This document shows, in pieces, positions 5,887 to 42,229 of a stretch of 64,000 nucleotides of DNA. A program made the translations under genes and the position numbers. The notes below the pieces were generated by a model. The model did no database searches. It was not told the DNA's origin and saw only the letters and a program-made list of their open reading frames with translations. The number at the start of each line of letters is the position of its first letter. Position 1 is the stretch's first letter. Source of the DNA: Planctomycetota bacterium (GTDB lineage: Bacteria; Planctomycetota; UBA1135; UBA2386); contig OZ245006.1 in NCBI GenBank assembly GCA_965223545.1, positions 6,816,001-6,880,000 on the forward strand. The letters are read 5' to 3'.

Positions 5887-7026
5887 ATGCGCAGACCCAG
5901 TCTAGGTGCGTCGTCGATCGCGGCCCTCGCGGCCGCGTTGTTTCCCAGCGTGGCCCCCGCGAGCGTGCAAGGCGCGGTGCTCGTCGTCGACGCAGCGGGT
6001 GGTCCCGGCGTGCAGCACACCGCGATCCACACCGCGGTCGCCGCCGCAGCGCCGGGCGACACCGTGTTGGTGCGCGCGGGCAGCTACCCGGGGTTCGCGG
6101 TCGGCAAGCCGCTTTTGGTGATTGCCGATGCGGGCGCCGCCGTGCAGGTGTCGGGGGCGGTCTCGGTGGCCGGCACCGCGGTCGGTGAGACCGTCACGTT
6201 GCTCGGCCTGGAGTTCCGCGGCTATCCGGCGAGCCTGCAGATCACCGGCTGCCGCGGTCCGGTCTGGATCGAGGCGTGCCGCACGCGCATCGGCGGCGCC
6301 GGCTTCCACGCGCTGGAGATCAGCGACAGCGCGGCCGTGACCGTCGCGCGCAGTCGCCTCGAGGCGGCCGGCACGGGTGGCTACGGCGTCGGCGTGCTGC
6401 GCTCGAATGCCTACTTCGCGCAGACGAGTATTCGCGGCGGCGACGGCGCCTTCGAAGTCAGCGCTGGCTGCGGTTTGGTCGTCCAGGGAACGCCGCAAGT
6501 GGGTGGGTTCGCATTCCTCACCGATTGCTCGGTGTCGGGCGGCATGGATCTGTACGGCGGACTGACGATCGCCGTCGGTGGCTGGGGATACCACCACATC
6601 GAGCTGCTCGACTCCGCACTGCTCGGCCCGCGCTTCTCTTCGACACCCCCTGGCACGATCAACCAGCGCACCGGTGCGGGCCGCACCCTCGCCGCGTCGT
6701 CACCCGTGCGCGGTGGCAACATCCTCAACCTCGACTTCTTGGCGCAGCCCGGCGACGTGGTCGGTGTGCTGATCGCCGCCAGCCCGCTCTCGTCCGCTCC
6801 ACTGCTCGAGGCGTGGAACGGCGTGCTGTTGCTCGCGCCGCCGTGGTCGGCCTTCGCCGCCGGCGTCGTGCCCGTCAGTGGTCAACACCGCGTCCGGCTG
6901 CCGGTGCCGGCGTTGGCCGCGGGGCGCGACGTGGTGCAGCTTTACGTGCAGGGATTCGGGGTCGGGGGCTCGTCGGTTTGGATCGGGTCGGGCTCGGCGC
7001 TGGCGGTGTTGAACGCGCGGTTCTGA
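5887..7026 (+). CDS. Secreted beta-helix-like protein with shared C-terminal domain
   Basis: GAGGAG RBS; signal peptide; VLVVDAAGGPG...IHTAVAAAAPGDTVLVRAGSY is a pectin-lyase-like start. Confidence 0.8.
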   Translation: MRRPSLGASSIAALAAALFPSVAPASVQGAVLVVDAAGGPGVQHTAIHTAVAAAAPGDTVLVRAGSYPGFAVGKPLLVIADAGAAVQVSGAVSVAGTAVGETVTLLGLEFRGYPASLQITGCRGPVWIEACRTRIGGAGFHALEISDSAAVTVARSRLEAAGTGGYGVGVLRSNAYFAQTSIRGGDGAFEVSAGCGLVVQGTPQVGGFAFLTDCSVSGGMDLYGGLTIAVGGWGYHHIELLDSALLGPRFSSTPPGTINQRTGAGRTLAASSPVRGGNILNLDFLAQPGDVVGVLIAASPLSSAPLLEAWNGVLLLAPPWSAFAAGVVPVSGQHRVRLPVPALAAGRDVVQLYVQGFGVGGSSVWIGSGSALAVLNARF

Positions 7027-7046
7027 GGCTGGTCGAGCCAGCTGCC

Positions 7047-8129
7047 TCACCGATGCGTGAGGCGTACGATCGGCCCGCGGCCGACGAACACCCGACCGCT
7101 GGCCGGATAGGGCTGCCCGCTGGCGACGGGCAGCGAGCGCACCGTGCTGAGCGCGGCGGGCGGCATCGCCGTGCCGATCGTCAGCTCGAGGCCGTTGGTG
7201 GTGGTGATGCCGGCGGGGTTGCTGATCGGCGCGGATTCGAGATTGACGCCCTGCGCGAACACCGACATGCCCAAGGCGTTGGCCGACAGTGGCAGCGGGA
7301 TCCTGAGCAAGTGGCCGCTGTCCAGCTGGCTCCCCAGCGGGGTGCCGAACACGAACGGCACCACCAGCGTGGGGGCGGCGTAAAGCGTGCAACCCGTGGC
7401 GCCGATGTTCTGCAGCGATACCGAAGTCTGTGCCGCGCCGAACATCACTAAACCCGGAGTTCCGGGTTCGCCGAAGGTCGTGACGAACGCATCCGAACCC
7501 GGCAGTAGGAATCGCGCGGAGGCCGCGGCCGTCGTGTCGCTGCGCAGTGCCCCGACGCCGCACGGCGTGCCGAAGTTGCGCACCCGGCTGCCGGTGAACT
7601 CCTGCACCGCGTCGACCGACCAGAGGATCCGGCCGCCGGCCGCGACGGGCTCGCCCTCGATTTCGATGCACAGGTCGCCACCCAAGTACGGGTACGGCGC
7701 AATGAAGCGCAGCTCGACCGCGTTGGGCGCCGCCCAAACCGGTGGATTCTGTGCAGCGGTCGAGGCGGGCAGAGCGACCGTCCCGTTGAACACCGTCACC
7801 GGCGCCGGCCCGGAGTTGTCGGTAAACAACGACGACGGTGCCACCGGCGAGCGCTGTGCGGGCGACAAGCGCACCGTCAGCAGCGAACTCGACGCCGCGT
7901 AAGGCAACCCGAGGGCCGCGTCGCGCCGAAACCATAGGGCGTCGATCTGCTTGCCGATCAATCCGCCGAGCTCGCGGGCATGCAGCAGGATCTGTTGGCG
8001 AAAGCGATCCTCGAAGCCCGCGACGAAGCCGCGTGACCCGGCTTCTTGTTGGTCGTAGGCGCTGGGCACGACGACATCTTGCGCGGCGAGCCCGCTACAT
8101 GCGGCGAACAAGAAAACCAGTTTGCGCAT
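7047..8129 (-). CDS. Secreted protein, paralog of 22519-23631
   Basis: Signal peptide MRKLVFLFAACSGLAAQ; clear similarity to 22519-23631 (YDQQEAGS, FRQQ, GKQID.LW.RR, SNPAG.TTTNGL.L). Confidence 0.85.
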   Translation of the reverse strand: MRKLVFLFAACSGLAAQDVVVPSAYDQQEAGSRGFVAGFEDRFRQQILLHARELGGLIGKQIDALWFRRDAALGLPYAASSSLLTVRLSPAQRSPVAPSSLFTDNSGPAPVTVFNGTVALPASTAAQNPPVWAAPNAVELRFIAPYPYLGGDLCIEIEGEPVAAGGRILWSVDAVQEFTGSRVRNFGTPCGVGALRSDTTAAASARFLLPGSDAFVTTFGEPGTPGLVMFGAAQTSVSLQNIGATGCTLYAAPTLVVPFVFGTPLGSQLDSGHLLRIPLPLSANALGMSVFAQGVNLESAPISNPAGITTTNGLELTIGTAMPPAALSTVRSLPVASGQPYPASGRVFVGRGPIVRLTHR

Positions 8130-8130
8130 C

Positions 8131-8442: not shown

Positions 8443-8550
8443 GCCTGATGCGGTTGCGCCGACGCGTCGGCGCGGCGGAATCTCTCTCCTCATTGGCGCG
8501 AGATTAGCCGCCGGTGCCCGTGAAGGCAAACGATCGCGGATCGGCGGCGC

Positions 8551-11570: not shown

Positions 11571-12254
11571 ATGGCATCACCCGTGGATTCGACGAGTTGG
11601 TCGCTGGTGCTCGGGGCCGCCGCGGCGGTGCCGGCGGACCGAGAGGAGTTCGGTCGCCGCTACGGCCCCGTCATCGCCGGCTACTTTGCCGCGCGTTGGC
11701 GGCTGCCGGTCGGTCACGAGCGCGTCGATGATGCGAGGCAGGAGGTTCTCCTTCGCTGCTTCTCGCCCGGTGGTCCGCTGGAACGCGTGGATCCAGCGCG
11801 CTCGGGCGGGTTCCGTGCCTACCTTCGCGGTGTGGTCGGACGCGTCGCGTCAGAGCTGGAGCGGAAGATGAGCCGCCGCGCGCGTCGTGAGGCTCGTGGG
11901 TTCGAGCCCGACGACGTGGCGGCGCTCCAGTCGACTCCCTCGGAGGCGTTTGATCGCGGGTGGGCCGAGATGGTGACCGACCAGGCGTGGGCCGTGATGG
12001 CGGACAAGGCGCGCGGTCATCCGTGGGCGGAGTTGCGGCTGAGGGTCCTTGGCATGCGCTACGCCGATGGCCTGGCGCCGCGCGAGATCGCAGCCGCTAT
12101 CGACGAGCTCGGGGTTCGGCAAGTGCGCCGCATGGTCGCGACCGGCCGGCATCACTTTCGCACCGCGATGATGCACGTCCTCTCCGGATACCACCCGGAT
12201 CTCAGCTCGGTGCAACTCGAGCAAAAGTGCCGTGAGCTGATCGACTTGCTATGA
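11571..12254 (+). CDS. ECF sigma factor, planctomycete kinase-associated type
   Basis: STSWSLV, F.RRYGP, DDARQEV, GGFRAYL, AFDRGWA; stop overlaps the kinase start (ATGA). Confidence 0.85.
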   Translation: MASPVDSTSWSLVLGAAAAVPADREEFGRRYGPVIAGYFAARWRLPVGHERVDDARQEVLLRCFSPGGPLERVDPARSGGFRAYLRGVVGRVASELERKMSRRARREARGFEPDDVAALQSTPSEAFDRGWAEMVTDQAWAVMADKARGHPWAELRLRVLGMRYADGLAPREIAAAIDELGVRQVRRMVATGRHHFRTAMMHVLSGYHPDLSSVQLEQKCRELIDLL

Positions 12255-15200
12255 GCCGACCCGACGACATCGGTTCCACCGGCCGAGGCCCCTTCGATCC
12301 CGCGGATTATCTGGGTCGCGGGCTCAGCTCGGTCATTCGGCGGCAGAGAAGCCGCGCGGGTCCCTACAGTGCACCTGCCGAGACGGCGCCGTCCACACGG
12401 GAGTCGGACTTCGTCGAGCCGGTGCCCGACGAACTCGCGGGTCTGCCAGTCGTGGGGCTGATCGGGCGGGGCGGAGTGGGTTTCGTCTACCGTGTGGTGG
12501 ATCCCAAATTCGAGCGAGACCTCGCGGTCAAGGTGCTGTCGAGGCGATACGCCGGCGACCCGGAGATGGTGCAGAGGTTTTGCGAGGAGGCGAAGATCTG
12601 CGGCCAGCTCCAGCACCCCGGAGTCGTGCCGATCCACGATTGCGATCGTCTCGAAGACGGTCGTCCGTTCTTCACCATGAAGGTGGTCGAAGGCGAGACG
12701 CTGGCGGAGGTCCTTCGGTCTCGGACCGATTCGGCGTCTGCTCGCCAACCCTGTCTCGAAGTCCTCAGCCGAGTTTGTCAGACGGTTGCGTACGTGCACG
12801 CGCGAGGAGTTGTGCACGGAGACCTGAAGCCAAGCAACGTGATGGTCGGAGCCTTCGGAGAGGTGCAGGTGATGGACTGGGGATTCGCGCGCGTCGTGGA
12901 CCCCGAGCGGACTCAGCCCCGTCCGGGCGGAGGCGGCGTGGGGCCCGGCTCCGACGGGTCCTCGTTGCATGTGCTCGGCACGCCAGCGTACATGGCCCCG
13001 GAACAAGCGCGCGGTGATATGGCAGCAATCACTGCGAGGACGGACGTGTTCGGCCTGGGCGCGATCTTGTGCGAGATTCTCACGGGAGCGCCGCCGTACC
13101 AGGGGGAGTCCCGTTCCGAGGTGTATCTCCGTGCAACCCGAGGTTGGCAGGACGACGTGCGCTCTCGGCTCGACGTGTGTGGAGCCGATGGTGCCCTGAT
13201 CGACCTCGCGCGGCGTTGTCTCGAGCTCGAACCGGGTCAGCGACCCGAGGATGCCGGCTCTGTCCAAGGGGAGATCGCGGCCTACTTGGAGTCTGTCGAG
13301 GAGCGTGCGCACCGGCTCGAGCTTCGCGCCGCTCGGGCTGAGGCGCGGGCTGCCCAGGAGCGGCGTTCCCGCCGCTTGGCGACCGCGTTGGCGTCCGTGG
13401 TTGTCGTTGCCGTTGTGACGGTGACGGCCATCGGGATCTGGATGCAGTCGGAGCGCAGCAGCCGCGAAGCAGAGACGCACCGCCTCATCGTTGCGGCCAT
13501 GGAGCGTGCCCGCTTGCTGGGCAGTCAGGCGCGGGGACGTTCTCCCGGCACAGTCCTTGGCTGGCGCGAAGCGGTGGCTTCCGCGCAACAGGCGGTGCAG
13601 CTGGCGGCCGTTCGCGATGCTTCGGCCGATGATTCCGCCCGGGCGGCTGACTTGTTGGCCCAACTCGAGCGCGATCGCTCGGCCGCGGAGCGCGACCGGG
13701 ATCTGCTGGAGTGGCTCGAGGAGGTCCGGCCGCACTACACGGATGACCGCGGATCATCGGGGGTGAGCGAGGCCTACCGGCGGGGCTTCGAAAAGTTCGG
13801 CTTGCCGTTCGATCCATCGGCAATCGACCGGTTTGCGGCAAGGGTCGGTGAGAGCGCGGTCGCGGCCAACCTATGTGCTGCGCTGGACGATTGGGCTTAT
13901 GCGGCCCGCCGGCAAGACGACCCGATTTGGCGGGACCTCGTGGCTGCAGCGCGCGCGGCTGACGCCGATCCAATGCGCGATCGGATGCGGGCTGCGTTGC
14001 TCGAGGGTGATCTCGGAGCTCTCGAGGAGATCGGTGACTCGGGTACTTTTGGCGCGGCCGCCCCAGCCACGGTCAACTTGCTGGCCAAGACGCTGTTCCA
14101 GAGCGGCCGGAAGGACACTGCGATCGGCGTGCTACGCCGCGCTTGCCTCGACCACCCGGACGACTTCTGGATGCAGCACGACTTGGCTGTGTTTCTGAGG
14201 GACCGGCTTGAGCCGCCGTGGAGCGAGATCCTCGGACTATGCCGTGCCGCGGCGGGGCTCCGCCCAAACGACGCCCATGCCCTGACGGACTTGGCCCACG
14301 CGCTCATGACAGTGCAGGAGTTGGATGGGGCCGAGGCAGTGCTGCGTCAAGCCCTCGACGTGCGCCCCGACTACTCGCGCGCCTTGCGCTTCTCGGGATT
14401 GGTTCAGCGCAGGCGTGGCGATATTGCTGGAAGCTGGACTTGGTTCGAGCGAGCCGCGGCGCTGCCTTTGAACAAGGACTCGGCCCTTGCGGCTTGCGAT
14501 GCCGCACTCGCGTGCGTCTACCTCGGCAGGCTTGACCAAGCGGCGTCCCACGCCCTCGATGCGATCGCCGTCCAACCCGAACGCGGCTCCGGCTACCTTC
14601 ACGCTGGATTCGTGGCCTTCTTCGCCGGGAAGTTCGATCAGGCAACCGCATACTATGCCGAAGGACTGCGCTGGAGCCCGGACTCGTCCAACGCATGGAT
14701 GAGGCGAGCCAGAGCCCATCTGCGGATGGGTGAGCTCGGCGAGGCTGACGCTGCCATCGCAAGGGCCGCTGAGACAGCGTTGCCCGCGGGGAGATCTCAA
14801 GTCTCGAGTTTTCGGAGCGTCGTGGATGCCCTGCTGGAAGTCTCTCGGACCGACACGGTGGCGATGCCAGTGTTCGTTGATCCGTTGTTCGTCGAGACAG
14901 GCTTGCGCCGAATTTGGCGTGCGCATCTCTCATTCCTGCGAGGCGATCCAGTCGCAGCGGCCCGCGCGCACGAGAGACTCGCCGAAAGCGACCCGGAGTT
15001 GTTCCGGAGTTGGCGTCACCGGCGGTGGGCTGCGCTCGCGCTGGTCGCCGCGAGCTGGGAGGCGCGTCGCTCGGAAGAAGCGAATCGCTGGCGCGAAAGG
15101 GCCCGATCGTGGTTGGAGCAGCAGCTCGATGTATGGCGCACTTCGCAGCGCGCGGGAAACAGGTCGCCGGCGGACACGTTGCTCGGAATAAGGCTGGTCC

Positions 15201-15331
15201 AAAACGACCCCGCCCTTGCACCCATCCGGTTCGACGCGCCGGAGGGTCGTTTGGCCGAGTCGGAACGGGGCCCTTGGAGCGGCTTCTTCGCGGAGTGTGA
15301 GCGGTTTGCCGATTCGTTGCTCCGAGACTGA
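12251..15331 (+). CDS. Hanks-type Ser/Thr protein kinase with TM segment and TPR repeats
   Basis: IGRGGVG, AVK, HGDLKPSN, DWG, GTPAYMAPEQ, DVFGLG; TM helix; TPRs. Confidence 0.95.
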   Translation: MSRPDDIGSTGRGPFDPADYLGRGLSSVIRRQRSRAGPYSAPAETAPSTRESDFVEPVPDELAGLPVVGLIGRGGVGFVYRVVDPKFERDLAVKVLSRRYAGDPEMVQRFCEEAKICGQLQHPGVVPIHDCDRLEDGRPFFTMKVVEGETLAEVLRSRTDSASARQPCLEVLSRVCQTVAYVHARGVVHGDLKPSNVMVGAFGEVQVMDWGFARVVDPERTQPRPGGGGVGPGSDGSSLHVLGTPAYMAPEQARGDMAAITARTDVFGLGAILCEILTGAPPYQGESRSEVYLRATRGWQDDVRSRLDVCGADGALIDLARRCLELEPGQRPEDAGSVQGEIAAYLESVEERAHRLELRAARAEARAAQERRSRRLATALASVVVVAVVTVTAIGIWMQSERSSREAETHRLIVAAMERARLLGSQARGRSPGTVLGWREAVASAQQAVQLAAVRDASADDSARAADLLAQLERDRSAAERDRDLLEWLEEVRPHYTDDRGSSGVSEAYRRGFEKFGLPFDPSAIDRFAARVGESAVAANLCAALDDWAYAARRQDDPIWRDLVAAARAADADPMRDRMRAALLEGDLGALEEIGDSGTFGAAAPATVNLLAKTLFQSGRKDTAIGVLRRACLDHPDDFWMQHDLAVFLRDRLEPPWSEILGLCRAAAGLRPNDAHALTDLAHALMTVQELDGAEAVLRQALDVRPDYSRALRFSGLVQRRRGDIAGSWTWFERAAALPLNKDSALAACDAALACVYLGRLDQAASHALDAIAVQPERGSGYLHAGFVAFFAGKFDQATAYYAEGLRWSPDSSNAWMRRARAHLRMGELGEADAAIARAAETALPAGRSQVSSFRSVVDALLEVSRTDTVAMPVFVDPLFVETGLRRIWRAHLSFLRGDPVAAARAHERLAESDPELFRSWRHRRWAALALVAASWEARRSEEANRWRERARSWLEQQLDVWRTSQRAGNRSPADTLLGIRLVQNDPALAPIRFDAPEGRLAESERGPWSGFFAECERFADSLLRD

Positions 15332-15397: not shown

Positions 15398-16507
15398 GTG
15401 AACGTTGACCACCCACGGCTACTCCTCCGAATCCGGCCGACCGCATACTTGGGTCTCTTCGCCCTCCTGATGGCGATCGGATCATCCGCCTCGTTGGTTG
15501 CGCAGGCGACTGTGCAAGCGAACTACCCGCTGCTGACGGACCTCGCGGATGCCAGCGGCAACTACGCGGACGGCACGCTGCGCGGCGCGCCGCCGCCTGC
15601 TCCGCCCGCCAACGGCGTGTGTACGAATGGTATCTATACGTCGTCTCCGCCCGGTTCCGGGCGGATGCTCGCGCCCGGCAGCCAGGAGTTCCACACAGCG
15701 GACCTATTCAACCTGAACTCGAACGACTTCCAAATCGAGGTCTCGTTCAGGGTTGACGGCATGCCCTACAGGGGGCCGGGGTTTGTGCACGAGGGACCGA
15801 TCCTCGTTGTGAGTCCCTTGTGGAGATGGTTCGGTCTCGCCCTGCTGAACTCCGCGGGCACGTCGACAGCGACGACAGGCGAGTTGGGCGTTTCCTACAA
15901 CAACTCCCTCAAGTCGTGGTCGGCGACGACGGTGAACACGGGTCAATGGTACTCCGCCATGGTGCGGTACGAGGCCGGAACCGTCGAGCTGTACCTCGAT
16001 GGCGCGCGGATCCACCAAGCGTCGATTGGCACTCTCAACACCGGAGGCACGACCGAGATCCTGACGACTGACTATGCGTTCGGCAACGCCTTCAACGGTT
16101 GTATCCGCAATCTGCGGATTTGGAACGACCCCGATTTCTCGACAACGGCAGCGGGTGAGGCGATGCGCCTGGCGTCGCCACCCAATCCGTTGCTCCTGTT
16201 GGGCGGTCAGACAAATCGCCCGATCGTCGGTCAGGTTTGGGACCCACACATCGCAAACCCACCGAGCGGTGCTGTCCTCAATGCGCTGGTCATCGGTGTG
16301 AGTTCCGTGTCGATCCCGCTGCAATTCGGCACTCTCTTGTGTATCCCATCGCTCACCTTGCAGGGCCTACCAGGAGCCCCGTTCCAGATTCCGCTTCCGC
16401 CGAACCCGGCGCTGATCGGTGCGTCTCTTTGCACGCAAGGGGCGTCGGCGACCGCCAGCGCATTGCAGGTGTCAAACGCGATCGATGTCACGTTCGGCAA
16501 CGGCTAG
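15398..16507 (+). CDS. Secreted LamG/concanavalin-like protein with shared C-terminal domain
   Basis: Signal peptide ending LVAQ; GQWY...LYLDG...FNGCIRNLRIW LamG motifs. Confidence 0.8.
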   Translation: MNVDHPRLLLRIRPTAYLGLFALLMAIGSSASLVAQATVQANYPLLTDLADASGNYADGTLRGAPPPAPPANGVCTNGIYTSSPPGSGRMLAPGSQEFHTADLFNLNSNDFQIEVSFRVDGMPYRGPGFVHEGPILVVSPLWRWFGLALLNSAGTSTATTGELGVSYNNSLKSWSATTVNTGQWYSAMVRYEAGTVELYLDGARIHQASIGTLNTGGTTEILTTDYAFGNAFNGCIRNLRIWNDPDFSTTAAGEAMRLASPPNPLLLLGGQTNRPIVGQVWDPHIANPPSGAVLNALVIGVSSVSIPLQFGTLLCIPSLTLQGLPGAPFQIPLPPNPALIGASLCTQGASATASALQVSNAIDVTFGNG

Positions 16508-16644: not shown

Positions 16645-17751
16645 ATGTTCAGAATCGCTCTTCTTTCGCTCATTGTCGGGAGCTTGCTTCCCGCGCAAAA
16701 CACTGGCATTACGCTCGCCAACACCGTTGACGGGTACGTCGAGGTGCCCTATTCGCCTCAGGTCGTGCCGCAAAGCGGGATCACGGTCGAGGCGTGGATT
16801 ACTTACGATGGCACGACGCTGGGTGCCGGTTGGCGCAACCCGACCATCATAAGGCAGAACCGCAACGCCGCCCAAGAGGCTTACCTGATGCGCGTCGAAG
16901 CCGAAGCCAGTAGCAAGACCGTGCTGCGTTGGCTCGTCACCGCCAGTTCCACCGTGACTGTCGATTGGAACTTCACTGCCGGGCAGCTGCAGACGTGGAC
17001 CCACGTAGCGGGTACCTATGACGGAACGGCAGCGAATCTATATGTCAACGGCCAGTTGGTCGGGACGAGCCCCGGTGCTGGCGCGTTGGTCGACAGTGGA
17101 GACGTCCTGCGCATCGGTAAGGGTTCCGACATCTCGACTCCGATCGAGGTCTGGAATGGCAGTATTGACGAGGTGCGCCTCTGGCCCTTTGCCCGAACCG
17201 GAGCAGAAATCTCGTCCACAATGAACGATGAGCTGTCATCGGTTCCAGGGCTCGTCTCGACCTGGAATCTCAACGGCAACGTGCAGGACTCCTCGTCCAC
17301 GCTCCACGGCAGTGTCAGCGGTGGTGTGAGTTACACCGCTTCTCCCGCACTGACCGTGACACCCCTGTCCAGCTCCGTCTTGGGCGCGGGCACACCCGGC
17401 TGCTTGGGTAGCATTGTCAGCTCGATCGCGGCGGTGCCGCGAGCCGGCAACAGGGGGTTCGCGTTCATGGCGCACCAGGTTCCGGCCGGTGCACCGACGA
17501 TTTCACTGTTGGGCCTTCGAGCGTTGGGCGCCCCGATTCAGATTGCTGGCGTCAATCTCTGGCTCGACCCGACCGCGCTGGTCGGTAGCTTCCCCTGTCC
17601 GGTGGATGCGCTCGGCACTGCCCGCCAACGACTGCCGCTCCCAGCGACCGTGGCAGGGCTGAATGTGATGATTCAGTTCGCCTCGATCGATCTCTGTGGT
17701 CCGCAAGGTCTGACCGCTTCCGACGCAATCTCCCTGCAGTTCGTGCCCTGA
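16645..17751 (+). CDS. Secreted LamG-domain protein with shared C-terminal domain
   Basis: Signal peptide MFRIALLSLIVGSLLPAQ; ITVEAWI, WTHVAGTYDG, LYVNG, GSIDEVRLW. Confidence 0.9.
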   Translation: MFRIALLSLIVGSLLPAQNTGITLANTVDGYVEVPYSPQVVPQSGITVEAWITYDGTTLGAGWRNPTIIRQNRNAAQEAYLMRVEAEASSKTVLRWLVTASSTVTVDWNFTAGQLQTWTHVAGTYDGTAANLYVNGQLVGTSPGAGALVDSGDVLRIGKGSDISTPIEVWNGSIDEVRLWPFARTGAEISSTMNDELSSVPGLVSTWNLNGNVQDSSSTLHGSVSGGVSYTASPALTVTPLSSSVLGAGTPGCLGSIVSSIAAVPRAGNRGFAFMAHQVPAGAPTISLLGLRALGAPIQIAGVNLWLDPTALVGSFPCPVDALGTARQRLPLPATVAGLNVMIQFASIDLCGPQGLTASDAISLQFVP

Positions 17752-18821: not shown

Positions 18822-21773
18822 ATGTTCGCCAAAGGCCTGAGTGTCTCGTTTGTTATCGCGCTGCTCACCGCTGCAGCCGTCGCCCAAGGCGCGCGGCTGG
18901 TGCGCGACATCAATCTCACGGGCGCGACGGAGACGTCGTCCAATCCGGCCGGGTTCACGGACGTCGGCGGTGAAACCTACTTCGTCGCCGATTGGCCGGG
19001 AACGGGGGGCGAGGTTGTCCGATGGTCACCCGGCACCGGAGCGGCCACGCTGGTCGTCGATCCCTCGACATCGCTGTTCAGCTCCCGGGCGCGCGAGTTG
19101 AGCGAGCTGTCGGGTCTCGCCGTGTTCATTGCGGATGCGCTTGTCGGCGTGCATGTGCTCTCGGCGGACCCCTCTTTGTGGGTGGCCGATCCCCTTACGG
19201 GCAATGCGCAGCGATTGTCTTTCACGGTGGCGCCGAGTGGTCCCTTGGTCAAGGCTGGTGGATTGTTGTTCTTCAGCGGCAACGGCGACCTTTGGAGGAC
19301 CGATGGGACTCCGCGCGGCACGCAGATGGTTGCGGATCTGTTTCCTCAAGAGCGAGTTGCCCTCGGGTCGGAGCTGGTGTTCTCCGCGGTGGACGGCGGT
19401 GGTCCTGGCTTGTGGCGCACCGACGGGACCGCGAATGGCACCGAGCTGGTCCAGCGTTTCGCAAACCGGCCGCGACCGTTTGCGGCGGCGGGTGGCTTGG
19501 TGTTCATGGCCGCGACCGATCCGCAGACCGGGGCCTCCCTTGGCTTGTGGGTTACCGATGGGACTTCGGCCGGGACGCGCGAGATCGCCGGGCCGTTCCT
19601 GGACATCCAGCGCGCTAGAGGGCAGTGGAGCGTGCAGGGCACGACGCTTTACGTGGTCTGCGACGATGGCGTGACGGGCGAGGAGATCTGGCGGTCGGAC
19701 GGCTCCGCGGCGGGGACGGCAGTTGTCCGCGACATCGCGCCTGGCGGTGCCAGCTCGTTCCCGACCGGTCTGACCGCCGTCGGCTCCGATGTGATGTTCG
19801 CTGTTGGCGGTGCGCGAGAGTTGTGGAGGACGGATGGCAGCGCAGCAGGCACGGTGCGCGTTGTCTCAACGGCAACCGTGGCGGTGTGCGCCGATGGCGT
19901 GGCTTGGCGAGGTCGCTACTACTTCGGTGGGACTGATGCGGCCGCAGGATGTGAGCTGTGGGCCTCGGACGGCACTGCCGTCGGCACAGTCCGGGTTGCT
20001 GACATCGTCGCCGGCCCGACGGGGTCGTCGCCGACGAACTTGGCGCTTGTCGCCGGCGGTAGTCGCTTGGCTTTCTCCTGCGACGATGGAGTTTCCGGGC
20101 GGGAGCCGTGGGTGAGCGATGGCACGGCGATGGGGACCCGGCGGATGGCAAACATCGGTCTCACGAATGCTGGCTCATCACCTCGGGAGCTCGTCGATCT
20201 GTATGGCACGACGGTGTTCTCTGCGGACGACGGCGTCGCGGGCCGTGAGCTTTGGCGCAGTGATGGCACGACCGCGGGCACGGTTCGCGTCAAGGACATC
20301 CGGGTCGGCTCGGTTGGGTCGGCGCCGGACGGGTTGTTCGTCGCCGGGGACGCGGTGTTCTTTGCGGCGGACGATGGCGGCGGAAGGCGGCTGTGGAAGA
20401 GCGACGGGTCGCCAACGGGCACCGTCGCCGTCCACTCTGTGCTTCCGTCGACCGGAGCCGGTGCCGTGGCCGTGGGACGCGAGCTGTTCTTCGTCGGCGA
20501 TGATGGACGTAGCGGCACGGAGTTGTGGGCCTCGGATGGTACCGCGTCCGGGACTCGACTCGTGCTCGACCTGACTCCGGGGGCCGCTGGGACCGACTTG
20601 CGGATCATCGGTGCGGTCGGTGCGAGGGCGTTGTTTGTGGTCGATGCGGGCATGACGGAGTTGTGGTCGACCAACGGAACCGCTTCCGGCACGCGGTACT
20701 TGGCGGACACGGTTGCCTCTGTGCCACGAGCCGAGCTTGGCGGTGTGCTGTACTTCGCTGGCACGACGCCCTCCACGGGCACCGAGTTGTGGGGCACTGA
20801 CGGGACGGTCGTGGGCACGCGGATGGTGGTCGATCTCGTCGCGGGATCGGGGAGCTCGAACCCCACCGAGCTCGCGGCCACCGACGGGCTCCTGCTCTTC
20901 AGCGCCTGGACCTCGGGTTTTGGCGAGGAGCTGTGGGCCTCGGACGGGACAGCGCGGGGAACGGGGCTGGTTCTGGATATCGTTCCGGGACCCAATAGCG
21001 GCAGTCCGCGTGGGCTCACCGCGGCCGGTGAGTTCGTCGCCTTCACGCGGTCCATCGGCAGCACGGTGGACATCTGGCTCTCGGACGGCACGGCGTCGGG
21101 CACGACTCTTGTTCGGGATCGTTGGTTCTCGGTAGTCGGTTTGACGGCAGTCGGTGCCAGACAAATCTACTTCGCCGGCGATTCGGCGAACCCGGCGCCG
21201 AGCTACGTCAGCTACTTGGGCGGGGAGCCCTGGCGGGTGACTGCAGCGGCCGGAGTTGAGCTCGTCGCCGACATTGCGCCGACATTCGCCACGTCGACGC
21301 CGACCGGGATGACCCTGTCGTCTGGCGCGTTGCTGTTCGGAGCGGACGACGCGACTCGCGGTCGCGAGCTGTGGCTCGTCGAGCCGGGCGCAACGAGTCA
21401 ACCGGTCGGCCAGGGTTGTCTGAGTGGATCGCCAGCGCTGCGGCTCTGGGCCGATGACCCTGTTCTCGGCGCGACCGCTTTCGTCCGCGGCAGCGGCGCG
21501 CGCCCGGGAACCTCCGGGGCACTGCTGCTCGGAAGCCCTCGGCCGCCCACCGAGCTGGCGCCGGGCTGTTCTCTCTACCTGAATCTCGAGGGGTTGGTGA
21601 TTCTTGCGAGCCTGGCTCCGACGACCGGAGATTGGAGTCTCCCGATACCCCTGCCGTTGTCGACGGCATTGCACGGCGTGCACGTCGGCCTGCAGGCGGT
21701 TCTCGGGCCGGCACCGACGACGCTGGGCGCCGACCTGACGTCGTCGGTCGTGTGGACTCTGGCTGGTTCATGA
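18822..21773 (+). CDS. Secreted ELWxxDGT-repeat beta-propeller protein with shared C-terminal domain
   Basis: More than ten ELW(R/A)SDGT..GT..V.D repeats; signal peptide ending AVAQ. Confidence 0.92.
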   Translation: MFAKGLSVSFVIALLTAAAVAQGARLVRDINLTGATETSSNPAGFTDVGGETYFVADWPGTGGEVVRWSPGTGAATLVVDPSTSLFSSRARELSELSGLAVFIADALVGVHVLSADPSLWVADPLTGNAQRLSFTVAPSGPLVKAGGLLFFSGNGDLWRTDGTPRGTQMVADLFPQERVALGSELVFSAVDGGGPGLWRTDGTANGTELVQRFANRPRPFAAAGGLVFMAATDPQTGASLGLWVTDGTSAGTREIAGPFLDIQRARGQWSVQGTTLYVVCDDGVTGEEIWRSDGSAAGTAVVRDIAPGGASSFPTGLTAVGSDVMFAVGGARELWRTDGSAAGTVRVVSTATVAVCADGVAWRGRYYFGGTDAAAGCELWASDGTAVGTVRVADIVAGPTGSSPTNLALVAGGSRLAFSCDDGVSGREPWVSDGTAMGTRRMANIGLTNAGSSPRELVDLYGTTVFSADDGVAGRELWRSDGTTAGTVRVKDIRVGSVGSAPDGLFVAGDAVFFAADDGGGRRLWKSDGSPTGTVAVHSVLPSTGAGAVAVGRELFFVGDDGRSGTELWASDGTASGTRLVLDLTPGAAGTDLRIIGAVGARALFVVDAGMTELWSTNGTASGTRYLADTVASVPRAELGGVLYFAGTTPSTGTELWGTDGTVVGTRMVVDLVAGSGSSNPTELAATDGLLLFSAWTSGFGEELWASDGTARGTGLVLDIVPGPNSGSPRGLTAAGEFVAFTRSIGSTVDIWLSDGTASGTTLVRDRWFSVVGLTAVGARQIYFAGDSANPAPSYVSYLGGEPWRVTAAAGVELVADIAPTFATSTPTGMTLSSGALLFGADDATRGRELWLVEPGATSQPVGQGCLSGSPALRLWADDPVLGATAFVRGSGARPGTSGALLLGSPRPPTELAPGCSLYLNLEGLVILASLAPTTGDWSLPIPLPLSTALHGVHVGLQAVLGPAPTTLGADLTSSVVWTLAGS

Positions 21774-22518: not shown

Positions 22519-23631
22519 CTACCGCAATTCCAGCCGGATGACCGGTCCGCGCGACAGCCCGATCTCTCCCGTAGTCGGGCGCGGGGCCGTCGCTCCCGGT
22601 GACCGTGCCGAGGCCACCATGGAGATCGAAGCGGGCGGCATGGTCGGCCCGAGGGTGAGCTGCAGGCCGTTTGTCGTGGTGAGGCCAGCGGGGTTGCTGA
22701 CCGGTGGGATCTCGACACTCGCACCTTGCATGTAGAACGCCGCCCCCAGTAGCTGAGGCGTGGCCGGGATCGGCAGGCGCAGCCGGACCAGAGTGTCCGG
22801 CGCGCCCGTCGCGGCGAATGCGACCGGCAACGTGGCCTGCGGAACGACGGTGACCGAGCAGCCGGGAGCGCCGGTCGGGTCCAGCGGCACGGCGGTCGGC
22901 GCCGTGCCCAGGGCGAGCGCGCCGGTCGACCCGGCGACGGCGAACATCCCGACCAGCAGCTCCCCGCCCGGCATCAGCGTGCGGTCGCGGGCGTACAGGG
23001 TCTTGGGGCCGCGCGCCGCGGTGGCTCCGCAGGCCGCGCCGGTCGTGGTCACCGCGCTGCCGGTCGTTTCGACGAACGCGTCGACCCACCAGTTCGCACC
23101 CGAGAGGCCGCTGAGTGGCGTGCCCTCGATCTCGATGCACAAGTGGCCGGCCTGGTACCGCCACCCCGGCGAGAACGGGATGCGCACCGCGTACGGGCTC
23201 TGCCACGGATAGGGCGGCGTGATCGCGGCCGAGCTCGGCAGCGGCAAGGTCCCGCTGAAGACGACGGCAGGACTCGCGCCGTGATTCTGCGCGAAGGCTC
23301 GAGCGGGTGCTGCCGGGTGGCGCGCGTTGTCCGATACGGTGACGGTGATGCTGGCCGTCTCCGCCTGCACCGTGGCCCCCAACGAATGGTTGCGCCGCAA
23401 CCACAGGCCATCGATCTGCTTGCCGGCCGCTTGCTCAAGCAAGTCGTCGCGCACGAGCAGCTGCTGTCGAAACGCGTCCGAGAACCCGGCGACGTCGGTG
23501 ACCGAGCCCGCCTCCTGGGTGTCGTAGATCGCGGGAATCACGATGGCCTGCGCCGGGCACGTCGCCGCGGCGCCGAGCAGCGCGGCCAGCGACATCGGGG
23601 TAGAGGGCCGTCTGGGGGCTCGTGCGTTCAT
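22519..23631 (-). CDS. Secreted protein, paralog of 7047-8129
   Basis: ATGA overlap with the upstream small gene; signal peptide; same motifs as 7047-8129. Confidence 0.85.
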   Translation of the reverse strand: MNARAPRRPSTPMSLAALLGAAATCPAQAIVIPAIYDTQEAGSVTDVAGFSDAFRQQLLVRDDLLEQAAGKQIDGLWLRRNHSLGATVQAETASITVTVSDNARHPAAPARAFAQNHGASPAVVFSGTLPLPSSAAITPPYPWQSPYAVRIPFSPGWRYQAGHLCIEIEGTPLSGLSGANWWVDAFVETTGSAVTTTGAACGATAARGPKTLYARDRTLMPGGELLVGMFAVAGSTGALALGTAPTAVPLDPTGAPGCSVTVVPQATLPVAFAATGAPDTLVRLRLPIPATPQLLGAAFYMQGASVEIPPVSNPAGLTTTNGLQLTLGPTMPPASISMVASARSPGATAPRPTTGEIGLSRGPVIRLELR

Positions 23632-24831: not shown

Positions 24832-26286
24832 ATGCACACGCGCGCGCGCTACCTGTTCAGCTTCGCTGTCCTCGCCCAACTCGCCCCGGCGCAGCCACCG
24901 GCGATGCGCCTGGTGCTCCCCGGAGTCGTCCACGCCGCCGCGCTCGGTGATCTCGATGGGGATGGAGTCGCCGACCTCGCCTTCGGTGACAGCGCCGCCG
25001 GTCAGCTGGTGGCGTTGTCCGGCGTGGATGGGTCATTCCTTCACCGTGTTGCCGGGGCGTCCCTGCCGCGGTCCGCGGTGGGCAATCTCGACGGCGTCGG
25101 CGGCGCCGATCTGGTCGCAGTGACGGCCGCGGTGGGGTACTCGGTCTACTCGGGGACGACCGGTGCGCTGCTGTACACGGTGCCACTCGCGAGCAACGAG
25201 ACGTCGGCAACCGGGGTCCTCGGCCGCGACGACCTCGACGGCGATGGCGCCGACGACTTGTTGGTGACCTACGCTTTGACTACGGGGTGGTACGCGGTGC
25301 GAGCACGGTCCGGCCGCGACGGCACCGTACTGTGGAGCTTCGACTACGACGCCGGGGCCTCGATCGGCTTTTCTGCCAATCCGCTGGGGGACGTGGATGG
25401 CGACGGCGTCGAGGATTTCTGGATGTCGCGGTTCGTCGGTGGCTACTCCGTCGATGAGATCGCGGAGATCTTCTCGGGTGCGACGCGAACCAAGATCCGC
25501 AGCTACCGCAACACATACGTCACCCTGAAGCCGATGGGGGATTCCGATGCCGACGGGTGCGACGACTACTTGGTGCAAGAGAGCTACTGGTGGACCGCGC
25601 CGCTGCCACGGACACTCGTTTCGGGCAAGACCGGTGCCCTGATCGCGGGCTTTGGCACGGCCGTCGACGTGGACTCCGCGGGCGACCTCGATGGCGATGG
25701 GATCGTGGACGTGCTCGCCCGCAACCGGTCGGGGTTGTCCGTGAATGTCCATAGCGGTCTGCCTCCCTTTGCCGTGCTGTGGACCTACTCCTCGCCGTCT
25801 CCGCTGCCATCGATCCGTGCACTCGGTGACGTCGATGGAGACGGCCGCGGTGATTTCGCGTTCTTCGATTCGACCCCCGATTGCGCGTCCATTTCCACCA
25901 GCGGCGCAGCCAACCTGTTGGGCGCGCCATCGGTGGCGCGTGTCGGGGCGCGTGCGAACCAGGACATGGCTCTGACGCCGGGTGACTACGGCGGCCAGGC
26001 GTATGCCGTCGTCGGCTCCATCTCCGGTACTCGGCCGGGCGTCGTGATCGGTGGAGTACCCGTTCCCCTGAATCCGGACGCGCTGACGTTCAGCCCGGCT
26101 GCGCGCGGGTTCTTGCTCGGCGGCAGTGGCGTGCTACCGACGGAGGGGAGCGCAAACATCGGCCTGCGCCTGCCGATCTTGCCGGCTTCGGCGATCGGAA
26201 TGACGGTGCACCACGTGGCGCTGATCTTCGGGCCCCTGGGGATCGAGGCCGCGACCGTGCCGGTGCCGCTCGTGATTCTGCCGTGA
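24832..26286 (+). CDS. Secreted FG-GAP/VCBS-repeat (integrin-alpha-like) protein with variant C-terminal domain
   Basis: Repeated GDLDGDGVAD Ca-binding motifs; signal peptide ending APAQ. Confidence 0.9.
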   Translation: MHTRARYLFSFAVLAQLAPAQPPAMRLVLPGVVHAAALGDLDGDGVADLAFGDSAAGQLVALSGVDGSFLHRVAGASLPRSAVGNLDGVGGADLVAVTAAVGYSVYSGTTGALLYTVPLASNETSATGVLGRDDLDGDGADDLLVTYALTTGWYAVRARSGRDGTVLWSFDYDAGASIGFSANPLGDVDGDGVEDFWMSRFVGGYSVDEIAEIFSGATRTKIRSYRNTYVTLKPMGDSDADGCDDYLVQESYWWTAPLPRTLVSGKTGALIAGFGTAVDVDSAGDLDGDGIVDVLARNRSGLSVNVHSGLPPFAVLWTYSSPSPLPSIRALGDVDGDGRGDFAFFDSTPDCASISTSGAANLLGAPSVARVGARANQDMALTPGDYGGQAYAVVGSISGTRPGVVIGGVPVPLNPDALTFSPAARGFLLGGSGVLPTEGSANIGLRLPILPASAIGMTVHHVALIFGPLGIEAATVPVPLVILP

Positions 26287-26350
26287 CGGGAGGGAGGCGG
26301 CGGCCGGGGATGTCGAGCAGAGCCCGAACCGCGTGCTATCGTCGCGCCCG

Positions 26351-29034: not shown

Positions 29035-31248
29035 TCACTCGCCGATCACCAGGTCGACTGCGTTGGTCAGAGAGAGGCCAGACCTCGCAGCGGCGAGCAG
29101 CAGGGCCTGGCTGTAGAGCGGCTGTCCGAACAGGCTGGTCGAGACTGACACCGGGAGCGGGAACGTTGCGAACCCGGAGGCGTTGACTTGCGCGGGCGAT
29201 GTGTCGAGCAGCTGGCCGGGATCAACCAAGAGCAGACAGACGTCGTTGAACGGATGCGTGGCTGGCGCCCGTGACAGCAGCAGGGTCGCAGTACTGCCGC
29301 GCGTGCCCCCATGTACGTCCAGTGCAAACGACGGGTTGCCGATCGTCGGCCGGCCGAAAGCGTGCAGGGTCGGCGGGGTGGTCGACCGGGCGCAGCCGCG
29401 TCCACGCTGCGCGATCGCGGCGGCCGTGGTCGCCGCGTAGATCCAGGTGTCGGAGAGCAACGAGGGGGTGCCGGTGAAGCTACCGCCAAACAGCATCAAC
29501 CGGCCCCGCCCACGGTCGTAAGCCATGCTGTGTTGGTTTCGCGCGGGCGGGGAGGTCGCCGGGACGTGTGCCGTCCACACGGTGCCGTCCCATTCCCACG
29601 TGTCGTTCAGGTTGGAGCCGTTGGCGTGACCGCCGAACAGCACGACGCGCTCGATCGACGGGTCGTAGACCATGTCGAGACAGCACCGCGGCGACGGGTC
29701 GGGGCCGGTTGCCCGCTGGAGCCAAGTTGTGCCGTCCCATTCCCAGGTGTCGCCCAGCTTCTGCACCCTTCGGTCGTTGCCGCCGAAGATGACGACGCGC
29801 TGCCGCGAGGCATCGTACGCCATCGCGTGGTCGAAACGGGCCGGGGGAGATGACTGCGGCGTGCGCCGAGTCCAGGTCGTACCGTCCCACTCCCAGGTGT
29901 TGTTGGTCGCGTTGAACCCGCCGGTGCGTCCACCGAACAACACGACCCGCGCTCGCGCGGCGTCGTACACCATCGTGTGGTCCGAGAGACGGCCGGGCCA
30001 GGTTGGTGGACTCAGCTGGGACCATTGAGTGCCGTCCCACTCCCAGGTGTCGTCGATCGTGAAAGACGAAGTGTCGACTCCGCCGAACAGAACAATGCGC
30101 TGGCGCGCCTCGTCGTAGGCCATGGCGTGGGCCATTCGAACGGGCGGCTGCCGGCTGGGCTGGAGGCGCCACCAGCGGAGCCCGTCCCACGACCAGGTGT
30201 CGTTCTTGAACGAACCACCGAAGAGCACGATCCGGTCACTTGCCGTCGAGTACGCCATCGCGTGTCCCGAGCGGCCATTCGGGCTCGGAAAGGTCGCCGG
30301 AGTCCACGTGCGACCGTCGTACTCCCAAGTGTCCGACAACCAGCCTGCGGCGCCGCCACCGCAGAGTACGACACGCTGACGCGCAGCGTCGTAGACCATC
30401 GCCTGCGCCGACCGGCCGGACGGTGCGACGGCCGGGGATTGCTGCGTCCAGGTGGAGCCGTCGTACTCCCACGTATCGGCGAGGGCAGTCCCAGCAAAGC
30501 CACTACTGCGGCCGCCGAACAGCACCACGCGTCGCCGCGTGCTGTCGTAGGTCATGCTGAAGTAGCCGCGCGCGGCCGGTGTCGTCGACCCACCGACCTG
30601 CGTCCACGCGACGCCGTCCCACTCCCAGGTGTCGCCCAGCCCGTTGAGCGAAGCGTCGATACCGCCAAACAGAACGATCCGCTGGCGGTTCTCATCGTAG
30701 ACGAGCTGGTGGTAGCCGCGCGCAGGCGGACCCTGTGCCGCCAGCGCCCGCGTCCAGTTGGTGCCGTCCCACTCCCAGGTTTCTTCGACCGTGCTGCCGG
30801 TGTCACGGCCGCCGAACAACACGACGCGTTGTCGGGCGGCGTCGTAGGCCATGGCGTGCTGCCAGTAGATGGACGGAGATTGCGGGGGGTTGCGTTGCTG
30901 CCAAGCCACGCCGTCCCATTCCCACGTCTGCTGTTCTCCGTACAAGACGACCCGCCGGCGCGCCGAGTCGTAAGTCAAGGCGTAGTAGAACGTCTGTGGC
31001 ACGTTTGGCGAGAGTCGCTCGGTCCACGTCCGCCCGTCCCACTCCCAGGTCTCGTGCAGATTGAAGGAGCTGTCGAACAAGACGGTGCGTTGACGAGCGG
31101 AGTCGTACGCCATGGCACTCGTGGTGCGCAGCCGGGGCTTCTCCACCCACGTGGCCTGGGCGTGCAGGAGCGTTCCACCGAGAGCGAGCGCCGTCCCGGC
31201 CATGAGCCCGAAAGGGCTTCGAAAACGGAAGGGGGCTAGACGGGCCAA
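29035..31248 (-). CDS. Secreted kelch-repeat (DTWEWDG) beta-propeller protein with shared C-terminal domain
   Basis: About 12 repeats of HAMAYD..RQRVVLFGG...DTWEWDG; AGGAG RBS 6 nt before TTG 31248. Confidence 0.92.
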   Translation of the reverse strand: MARLAPFRFRSPFGLMAGTALALGGTLLHAQATWVEKPRLRTTSAMAYDSARQRTVLFDSSFNLHETWEWDGRTWTERLSPNVPQTFYYALTYDSARRRVVLYGEQQTWEWDGVAWQQRNPPQSPSIYWQHAMAYDAARQRVVLFGGRDTGSTVEETWEWDGTNWTRALAAQGPPARGYHQLVYDENRQRIVLFGGIDASLNGLGDTWEWDGVAWTQVGGSTTPAARGYFSMTYDSTRRRVVLFGGRSSGFAGTALADTWEYDGSTWTQQSPAVAPSGRSAQAMVYDAARQRVVLCGGGAAGWLSDTWEYDGRTWTPATFPSPNGRSGHAMAYSTASDRIVLFGGSFKNDTWSWDGLRWWRLQPSRQPPVRMAHAMAYDEARQRIVLFGGVDTSSFTIDDTWEWDGTQWSQLSPPTWPGRLSDHTMVYDAARARVVLFGGRTGGFNATNNTWEWDGTTWTRRTPQSSPPARFDHAMAYDASRQRVVIFGGNDRRVQKLGDTWEWDGTTWLQRATGPDPSPRCCLDMVYDPSIERVVLFGGHANGSNLNDTWEWDGTVWTAHVPATSPPARNQHSMAYDRGRGRLMLFGGSFTGTPSLLSDTWIYAATTAAAIAQRGRGCARSTTPPTLHAFGRPTIGNPSFALDVHGGTRGSTATLLLSRAPATHPFNDVCLLLVDPGQLLDTSPAQVNASGFATFPLPVSVSTSLFGQPLYSQALLLAAARSGLSLTNAVDLVIGE

Positions 31249-40729: not shown

Positions 40730-41793
40730 TGGGACGGTGCCTTGGATGCCTGCTGGTGCCGATCGTCCTGGCCGCCGCCGTAGGCGGCACGACCCAACAC
40801 GGCCTCGCTCAGGGGGAGCTTCCCGTTCAAATCACCGCCGCGCTGGACCGGGCGCGGCCGGTGCTCTTCGACATGGCGAAGACTTCGACCCAAGGTGTGC
40901 ACGCGCTGATTTGTCTCGCCCTGGCTCACGGCGGTTCGACGATGGCCGACCCGGAGTTCCGACAGGCGATCTCTCGACTCGAGGACAGCAAGCTGGCCCA
41001 AACGTACGACCTCAGCGTGCGACTGATGGTGATGGCCGAGGTCCAGGATTACCCAGCGCGGCGCCGCGCCGCGGACAGGGACCTCGCGCAGCTGCTGAAG
41101 AATCAGCGGGGAGGCGGGTTCGGCTACACGCCAAAGGGCGGGCATTGGGATCTCAGCAACACGCAGTACGCGGCGCTGGGCATGCGCGCCGCCGCGAGCT
41201 TGGGGGTCCCCATCTCGCGGCGCCGATGGATCGCGCTCGGTCGCACCGTACTGACCGCACAGGTCCGCCGAGGCGGATTCGGCTATCGACCGAAAGGGCG
41301 CGGCTCGAATCCCTCGATGACCGTCGCGGGAATCGCGGTACTCCAGATATGCCGCATGCAACTGAACGACAAGGGCACGCTGAGCAAGAGAATGCGGTCG
41401 GCGATCAGGAGGGCGTGGGATTACATGGCGAACAACAAGGAATCGATCGGCGCCGGTAGCGACAGCCAACGCAGCTACTACTTCCACTACGGACTCGAGC
41501 GGGCCGCGATCTTGTCCGACTTGGAGATGGTGGATGGCATCGACTGGTATCGCACAGGAGTAAGGATGCTCCTCGAAGACCAGGACCCCGACGGCGGATG
41601 GGGTGCTGCCCCTTGGGCAAGAGAAGCCGATCCCCGCCGGCCCGAGATGCACCGCGGCGGGGAGATCATGACTGCTTTCGCAGTTCTCTTCCTGCGGCAT
41701 TCGTTTCGCAAAACGCTGACGACAGGTCCGATCACGCCGCGCCCCCGAGCGTCATCTGATCTCCGGACCCCAGCGTCGGTCAGGGCTGGATGA
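40726..41793 (+). CDS. Exported prenyltransferase/squalene-oxidase-repeat (alpha-barrel) protein
   Basis: NQRGGGFGY, DLSNTQYAALG, SMTVAG, YYFHYGLERA, QDPDGGW. Confidence 0.8.
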   Translation: MMGRCLGCLLVPIVLAAAVGGTTQHGLAQGELPVQITAALDRARPVLFDMAKTSTQGVHALICLALAHGGSTMADPEFRQAISRLEDSKLAQTYDLSVRLMVMAEVQDYPARRRAADRDLAQLLKNQRGGGFGYTPKGGHWDLSNTQYAALGMRAAASLGVPISRRRWIALGRTVLTAQVRRGGFGYRPKGRGSNPSMTVAGIAVLQICRMQLNDKGTLSKRMRSAIRRAWDYMANNKESIGAGSDSQRSYYFHYGLERAAILSDLEMVDGIDWYRTGVRMLLEDQDPDGGWGAAPWAREADPRRPEMHRGGEIMTAFAVLFLRHSFRKTLTTGPITPRPRASSDLRTPASVRAG

Positions 41794-42229
41794 TCATCAG
41801 CGTCGCCGGGGTGATCTGCAGACACGGCCCCGCGCTGAGGAACCCCATGCTCATGGCCGCCTGCGCCGCGATCCCCGTACCGACCAGCGCTGGCACGTAG
41901 GGTACCTGCAGGGTGAGGACGCGCAGATGCGAGACCGGGAGCACGACGGTTGGCGCCACCACGATGCCACACGTCTGGCCGCCGCAGGTTCCGCTGGCGA
42001 ACGGAAACACGAGCGCCGATTGTGCGCCGATCACCATCACGCTGCCGATCGCGGGCAAGCCGGTCGGGTTGTACTCCAGCGCGATCGGCGAACCGAGCTG
42101 GGTCAAGCCGTGACACTTCATCGGCGGCGTGCTCGGGCAACCGGTGCCCGCGAGGGTCACGCACTGGGTGGCGGCCTCGGGCGCCAGCAGCGCCGAAGCG
42201 AGGAGAACGCTGAGCAGGGGCTTGATCAT
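41780..42229 (-). CDS. Small secreted protein consisting almost entirely of the shared C-terminal domain
   Basis: Signal peptide MIKPLLSVLLASALLAPEAATQ; GTGC...LG...C...LQVPYVPALVG...AQ. Confidence 0.7.
   Translation of the reverse strand: MIKPLLSVLLASALLAPEAATQCVTLAGTGCPSTPPMKCHGLTQLGSPIALEYNPTGLPAIGSVMVIGAQSALVFPFASGTCGGQTCGIVVAPTVVLPVSHLRVLTLQVPYVPALVGTGIAAQAAMSMGFLSAGPCLQITPATLMIIQP

Follow-up and report, generated by a model that had tools for sequence, protein, structure and literature searches.

The tails described here are closest, in logic, to systems that join one constant end region to variable exported passengers. Dockerins, of type I (PF00404) or GC-type (NF041540), are small helical domains built on a duplicated calcium-binding loop-helix motif. 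PEP-CTERM/exosortase systems use a constant C-terminal tag with a terminal membrane helix and a basic cluster on variable exported proteins within one lineage. The C-terminal domains (CTDs) of Bacteroidota's type IX secretion system (T9SS), type A (TIGR04183, Por_Secre_tail), each form one seven-stranded, 3+4 immunoglobulin (Ig)-like sandwich at the end of unrelated Sec-exported bodies, choice-of-anchor B proteins among them. These CTDs are needed for outer-membrane export and suffice for it, and they are usually cleaved. They are 70-100 residues long, and some escape cleavage (PMC11285876). Here we describe a domain of about 125 residues that is carried by nine proteins in a 64,000-nucleotide stretch of a Planctomycetota bacterium (assembly GCA_965223545.1, contig OZ245006.1, positions 6,816,001 to 6,880,000; hereafter the window). 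The domain family is real, large and uncatalogued. It works like a T9SS CTD or a dockerin tail in logic, but in sequence and position it fits neither, and the partner of neither was found. On balance, we lean towards reading it as an uncleaved envelope anchor or docking module.

The common tail had been noticed in a first-pass annotation made from the sequence alone. All nine open reading frames (ORFs) were located at the starts given there, with the quoted motifs at their ends, and profile and phmmer searches identified all nine proteins as carriers of one common domain. Each protein is named below by the lower coordinate of its ORF. Pairwise similarity is weak, with E values of 1e-3 to 1e-6 among six core copies in the nine-sequence set, the pair 7047/22519 (1e-25) being the exception, and sequence identity between copies is about 25-30%. 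A profile seeded with six window tails (7047, 15398, 16645, 18822, 22519 and 29035) retrieved 196 ORFs of the source genome in round one and 335 in round two, with no reversed decoys at E 0.001; later rounds drifted and were discarded, and a cleaned 128-column profile matched 336 ORFs. The final count was made with HMMER filters off at E 0.01, using this main profile plus a second profile for a subfamily termed B. The source genome (G000; 8.1 Mb, 69.7% GC, 91% complete) has the domain on 404 of 5,664 called proteins (7.1%), again with no reversed decoys; the gene calls were codon-based and made for the present analysis, and some starts are wrong. The main profile never found the domain repeated within one protein of this genome. 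Among the 404 copies, 354 lie within 15 residues of the C-terminus, 35 lie at 16-50 residues and 15 lie further away, and the carrier genes are scattered across the entire chromosome.

The copies of 5887 (E 2.9e-4) and 41780 (E 2.2e-6) were recovered by the main profile though absent from the seed. The copy of 24832 belongs to subfamily B and finds 19 other C-terminal copies by phmmer; this subfamily aligns to the C-terminal 46 columns of the main profile (hhalign probability 87%, E 3.9e-6) and also joins the main family on iteration. The annotation had called the 5887 and 24832 copies more divergent; those of 5887 and 41780 were hit with HMMER filters off. A third variant, ending in QxWxR[DN], matches the main profile weakly (hhalign probability 13%, E 0.002), and 12 QxWxR-ending homologues of a PF28492 passenger, among the best 120 such homologues, score E < 0.001 with the main profile.

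No named family was found for the domain, which the annotation likewise could not match to one: Pfam and NCBIfam match the passengers of the nine window proteins and not the domain itself. Forty-five tails scanned singly against Pfam at E 1 gave a best E of 0.02, and a PDB sequence search with the domain returned nothing below E 0.4. In the Atlas, the closest clusters (0.96-0.97) hold hypothetical proteins and are most frequent in Planctomycetota; the named ones include CHRD passengers (0.78-0.82). A literature search over listings and the openings of abstracts found no description of the domain; in the main text of 10.1101/817700, the words 'secretion', 'secreted', 'signal peptide' and 'C-terminal' are absent. 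The profile matches 31,806 representatives clustered at 50% identity. With this range, 7% of the proteins of one genome and no family model, the domain accounts for thousands of proteins annotated as hypothetical, and its profile can be used to flag the probable surface proteins of several uncultured Planctomycetota families.

The proposed lineage restriction also held. Many copies occur in 39 of 40 relatives of the source genome, the sole tail-negative relative being G027, a member of the same order. In a sample of the phylum, 61 of 301 genomes match, 55 of them with at least six of at most 13 scored candidates and six with one, and presence is mostly all-or-none by family. In G213, a small tail-positive genome from a different order, 40 of the 1,932 called genes encode carriers, with the domain terminal in 35. 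Among 78 titled loci of the PF28492 passenger, all of them from uncultured assemblies, 36 end in a main-profile match; 31 of these are titled Planctomycetota, three are untitled, and the remaining two, titled Deltaproteobacteria and Dehalococcoidia, may be mislabelled or transferred.

The carriers are soluble, Sec-type exported proteins. By heuristic prediction, 295 of 404 carriers have a signal peptide followed by Gln, vs 767 of the 5,260 remaining proteins; for at least two membrane helices the figures are 1 vs 521, and for a lipobox 2 vs 167. The tails align significantly, match no characterised domain, and are biased towards the C-terminus and towards signal peptides; the opposite of these three results had been set beforehand as grounds for abandoning the idea. 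Gln frequently stands right behind the predicted signal peptide genome-wide, as in the Q-rule of Bacteroidota; of the glutaminyl cyclases, the PF05096 type was searched for and had no match in five genomes. The passengers of 371 copies fall into 106 clusters. One carrier is a choice-of-anchor B protein (160 bits vs a cut-off of 100), and about five proteins, 41780 included, consist by eye of a signal peptide plus the domain alone.

The annotation had suggested structure prediction and a Foldseek search. The first gave a confident all-beta model; the second, run against PDB and viral models, returned nothing at E 0.001. The AlphaFold2 model of the 29035 copy has ten strands (predicted local distance difference test score, pLDDT, 95.7; predicted template modelling score, pTM, 0.88). 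The best matches in a wide structural search were an Ig-C2 domain (6grq_A; Z 9.1, root-mean-square deviation [rmsd] 2.8, 95 aligned) and a macroglobulin (MG) domain of complement C3 (Z 8.9, rmsd 2.8, 101 aligned). Identity to these is 7-20% and many unrelated Ig-like chains lie within 1-2 Z units, so they have a common fold with the domain and nothing more. The C-terminal region of PorU (Z 7.3) ranked 44th amid generic matches; other T9SS CTD structures were not among the top 50 listed and are not thereby excluded. Since Ig-C2 and MG stand at Z 8-9 and PorU at Z 7.3, the modelled fold is a generic Ig-like beta-sandwich. Among 370 aligned copies, Gln103 is conserved in 96%, Gly29 in 91% and Pro90 in 89%, and no aromatic residue exceeds 45% in any column. 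A cysteine pair co-varies (193 copies with both, 62 with neither, 19 with one), pointing to a disulfide that is optional. The near-invariant Gln had made a covalent bond of the Cys-Gln or Thr-Gln type a candidate; the paired co-variation of the cysteines and the absence of any conserved His or Lys led to its rejection. Lysine is nearly absent (0.2%), charged residues make up 7.9% of the domain vs 16.4% of equal windows of its own passengers, and hydropathy is 0.52 vs -0.08, with the domain higher in 96% of 346 proteins. Homodimer prediction scored 0.08 and 0.06, which is no answer and was used neither way.

These features set the domain apart from its analogues. T9SS CTDs have 70-100 residues and seven strands, whereas the domain has 125-130 residues, ten predicted strands and the cysteine pair. 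The nine proteins had no match at E 0.1 to TIGR04183 or the Pfam T9SS tail models, and a genome scan with TIGR04183 gave no match, its controls being silent too. The low lysine content and the N-terminal and inserted copies are traits of the domain, and T9SS CTDs are expected always to be C-terminal. PEP-CTERM has a terminal membrane helix and basic cluster, whereas the domain, judged from the alignment and the model, is folded beta and has neither; exosortase TIGR04178 had no match in G000, G029 or G213, with three matches in G080 as a positive. Dockerins have family models and are helical, whereas the domain matches none, is predicted to be all-beta and is uncharged, and the two have no profile similarity (hhalign probability 0.05%).

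Position speaks against a cleaved or strictly terminal secretion signal. Fifteen of the 404 copies are followed by more than 50 residues, nine of them directly behind the signal peptide and six internally. One such protein, an N-terminal domain plus kelch, is matched in 25 of 34 tail-positive genomes, near full length in 12 of several families, and four of 16 tail-negative genomes match through the kelch part alone; as it is not in all tail-positive genomes, it was rejected as a universal component. The paralogue family of 7047 and 22519 also departs from terminal placement. Protein 7047 (7047-8129, 360 residues) carries the domain at 7173..7589 on the minus strand (residues 181-319, E 1.4e-16), followed by an extension of about 40 residues (7050..7172, minus strand); its 358-residue paralogue 22519 (22519-23595) has it by profile match at 22648..23058 (minus strand), followed by 42 residues. 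In sixteen members of this family the domain is preceded by 12-27 residues and followed by 34-43; in five others it is preceded by 31-52 and followed by 0-1. In a model of 7047 (pTM 0.85, extension pLDDT 94-98), compact jelly-roll chains align over the range 1..344 (best Z 10.9, rmsd 3.2, 153 aligned), including a 130-residue carbohydrate-binding module (Z 7.8, 113 aligned), whereas Ig-like chains align over 174..305 alone, so the domain is predicted to be inserted in a passenger loop. The extension, by fold alignment and linker lengths, is predicted to complete the passenger jelly-roll. In the 16 paralogues the domain would thus lie inside the passenger fold, and its removal from a 7047-type protein is predicted to cost the passenger its last strands. 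The equivalence of the extension and the pre-domain segment rests on lengths and the model; a profile of the extension did not significantly detect the pre-domain segment of the five extension-free paralogues. With the inserted and N-terminal copies as natural controls, an anchor can be told apart from a cleaved signal.

The variable-passenger, constant-tail logic that the annotation had recognised extends to genomes lacking the domain, where the same passengers end in dockerins. The PF28492 passenger, whose gene accompanies one for a TonB-dependent receptor in both G000 and G213, has 2,748 homologues, of which the best 120 were classified by their ends: the domain by profile in 40, the QxWxR variant in 34, the domain by eye in five, a dockerin in 29, another domain in five, a short motif in three and nothing in four. 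On a FastTree phylogeny of this passenger, with a tail class that took in the 34 QxWxR variants and the five by-eye copies, the dockerin label changes six times, at least five of them forced by well-supported branches. Choice-of-anchor B proteins were found over the cut-off in six of 80 tail-negative genomes. They end in a GC-type dockerin in G080 and G107 and in a dockerin-I-like domain in G095 (over the Pfam cut-off) and G062 (under it); nothing follows in G065, and the G027 copy was followed only part of the way. With 39 dockerin matches, G027 also has dockerin-like domains at the ends of its five FG-GAP proteins, three of them over the Pfam cut-off. Dockerin matches are absent from G000, number 0-5 in 36 tail-rich genomes, and reach 12 or more in eight of 40 tail-negative ones. 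The domain and dockerins swap repeatedly on the same passengers, and their expansions do not coincide in the genomes tested. The exchange takes place in genomes in which, as far as the five tested show, cohesin was not found, which makes testable both how planctomycetes place proteins on the envelope and what their dockerins bind.

Further C-terminal tags occur on the PF28492 passenger: a beta-rich domain unrelated to the present one (P0056, P0058, P0089, P0115, P0120), a tag ending in a KFYR-like motif (L314, L321, L335, L343, L366, L369), and a short W/Y-containing end motif (P0012, P0015, P0017) in records titled Omnitrophota and Sumerlaeota. The operon common to G000 (G000:C1:4672357-4684333) and G213 (L105:7461-18913) encodes the tail-bearing PF28492 protein, an unnamed protein, the TonB-dependent receptor (52% identity across the two orders), an ExbD-like protein and tetratricopeptide repeat (TPR) proteins. 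Among 12 pairs examined for conserved neighbours of carrier genes, this operon alone stood out.

The annotation had offered a lineage-specific export, anchoring or scaffold-binding domain. Lineage restriction, single copies, the C-terminal and signal-peptide bias and the dockerin exchange agree with that proposal; a cleaved or strictly terminal signal is not supported. We propose, as the somewhat more probable reading, that the domain is an uncleaved envelope anchor or docking module. A carrier would cross the inner membrane by Sec, and the domain would fold in the periplasm and form its disulfide there. The carrier would then cross the outer membrane, most likely through type II secretion, apart from which no candidate exporter was seen. 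The uncharged, proline-rich domain may bind an envelope lipid, polymer or receptor non-covalently and without cleavage, so that the carrier would stay held on the cell envelope, most likely at the outer surface, with the domain still attached. Our first guess for the ligand is an outer-membrane lipid or lipid-linked polymer, as the tests run brought up no co-occurring protein partner.

Several observations weigh against an envelope anchor. The domain is terminal in 88% of copies and never repeated within a protein, and single terminal copies are typical of export signals, less so of binding modules. An additional, buried layer of the fold could account for its low charge. The genomes compared for dockerins are kin; of the 40 tail-negative ones, 32 show neither expansion. 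Cohesin PF00963 had no match in G000, G029, G213, G027 or G080, two of which are dockerin-rich (controls rang in two of 14), so the dockerin swap shows equivalence and not function. Related type II secretin clusters are present in tail-negative G027, and the tests run turned up neither a ligand nor a partner. The sole multi-helix carrier, a glycosyltransferase-like membrane protein, points to the periplasm rather than the surface. This protein (L175:498-2648; G000:C1:2680994-2683147, minus strand) ends in a subfamily B copy and has a weak match to the arabinofuranosyltransferase model NF041481 (E 7e-12, far under the cut-off).

A bolder and less probable form of the anchor reading is offered tentatively. 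In it the domain would serve as an address tag, uncleaved and tolerant of position, in a surface-display pathway not described before that belongs to a deep clade of Planctomycetota, with dockerins as the interchangeable tag in cohesin-less sister lineages. If so, a cell without T9SS or sortases would export several hundred proteins and hold them on its surface.

The main rival of the anchor, and a clearly less probable reading, takes the domain as a folded signal for export that a type II system or an unknown outer-membrane translocon would read in the periplasm, with cleavage optional and anchoring by other means. The single copy per protein, terminal in 354 of 404, fits such a signal, as do the near exclusion of lipoproteins (2/404) and membrane proteins (1/404), the Ig-like kind of fold that T9SS CTDs also have (PorU at rank 44, Z 7.3), and the five to nine secretins per genome in five genomes tested (six in G000); PMC11285876 likewise describes T9SS CTDs that stay uncleaved. 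Against it stand the N-terminal, internal and inserted copies, which include nine N-terminal and six internal ones and 16 paralogues with a folded extension of 34-43 residues, and the one membrane-embedded carrier. No machinery was identified either. In the 91% complete G000, SprA and peptidase C25 (PorU) went unmatched and PorV matched under the cut-off only, with controls for SprA and C25 that gave no true positive. Secretins were rejected as tail-specific machinery, since they do not separate tail-positive genomes from G027, which has such clusters in common with them. Comparison of 2.36 Mb of G213 with G000 gave 229 shared exported candidates; 87 hand-picked proteins, mostly from this set, were scanned in Pfam, 18 of them also in NCBIfam, and profiles of two families only were run across genomes. 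This comparison brought up no dedicated barrel or scaffold, with about 20 of the proteins unnamed; the barrels among the 87 are ordinary (BamA, TonB-dependent receptor, porins). No scaffoldin-like repeat protein common to G000 and G213 was found. G027 is the best contrast genome for a partner search.

A general module for binding substrates or particles, resembling a carbohydrate-binding module and borne by released proteins, is an improbable reading. An Ig-like beta-sandwich with an uncharged surface, a movable position and stand-alone copies would suit one, but the 106 unrelated passenger clusters, which include the receptor-operon partner, the lack of tandem copies and of any well-conserved aromatic residue, and the lineage-wide exchange with dockerins speak against it. 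We consider it very unlikely that the domain retains proteins in the enlarged planctomycete periplasm, on peptidoglycan or the inner face of a membrane: the multi-helix carrier, two lipoprotein-like carriers and the lack of a T9SS match in G000 (weak controls) would accord with retention, but choice-of-anchor B and large propeller proteins, which bear surface tags elsewhere, are among the passengers, and ordinary periplasmic proteins common to G213 and G000 lack the domain. Equally doubtful is self-assembly of the copies into a surface lattice displaying the passengers, which would draw on the domain-alone proteins, the hydrophobic make-up and the presence on 7% of genes, but copies are only about 25-30% identical and carrier genes have a less ribosomal-like codon bias than other genes, with one carrier in the top 70 (a crude measure).

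The remaining copies in the window are as follows. The divergent copy of 5887 (5887-7026, 379 residues) lies at 6646..7011 on the plus strand (residues 254-362). The two LamG proteins, 15398 (15398-16507) and 16645 (16645-17751), end in profile-matched copies at 16145..16498 and 17368..17742, both on the plus strand, as does the ELWxxDGT repeat protein 18822 (18822-21773; copy at 21384..21764, plus strand). The FG-GAP protein 24832 (24832-26286) ends in its subfamily B copy, assigned by phmmer and hhalign, at 25906..26283 (plus strand), and the kelch protein 29035 (29035-31203) in the copy chosen for folding, at 29041..29421 (minus strand, E 1.5e-23). Protein 41780 (41780-42229, 149 residues) has its copy, matched by phmmer to six family members, at 41783..42163 (minus strand). 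The passenger labels given earlier were upheld by Pfam for LamG, FG-GAP and kelch and by NCBIfam for ELWxxDGT; the beta-helix of 5887 has just a weak NosD match (E 0.006). Two corrections apply to the annotation: in 7047 and 22519 roughly 40 residues trail the domain, and the 'small protein' 41780 is more exactly a signal peptide plus the domain, with no further passenger.

Some large exported proteins were encountered along the way. Three tandem lipoprotein-like genes of 1,149-1,308 residues (L176; G000:C1:377897-389517) lie near a type IV pilus cluster. This giant lipoprotein family occurs in 13 of 13 same-order genomes tested, G027 included, and was rejected as a partner because tail-negative G027 has it and this query did not find it in 10 of 35 tail-rich genomes. 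Two proteins related to it, at G000:C1:4934992-4942339, hold the tail internally, and contig C103 of G027 encodes an order-typical giant lipoprotein together with an FG-GAP protein with a dockerin-like end. An exported protein of 3,441 residues (L274; G000:C1:5016380-5026717, minus strand) consists in part of near-identical 207-residue repeats and has no tail match. Within the window, inspection by eye identified a sulfatase-like protein with an HExxH motif in a domain fused at its C-terminal end (26333-28234), a fusion of a kelch-type propeller with a membrane domain resembling sodium:solute symporters (47238-49907), and two Ser/Thr kinase proteins with TPR-like C-terminal halves (12251-15331 and about 59017-63069), all on the plus strand.

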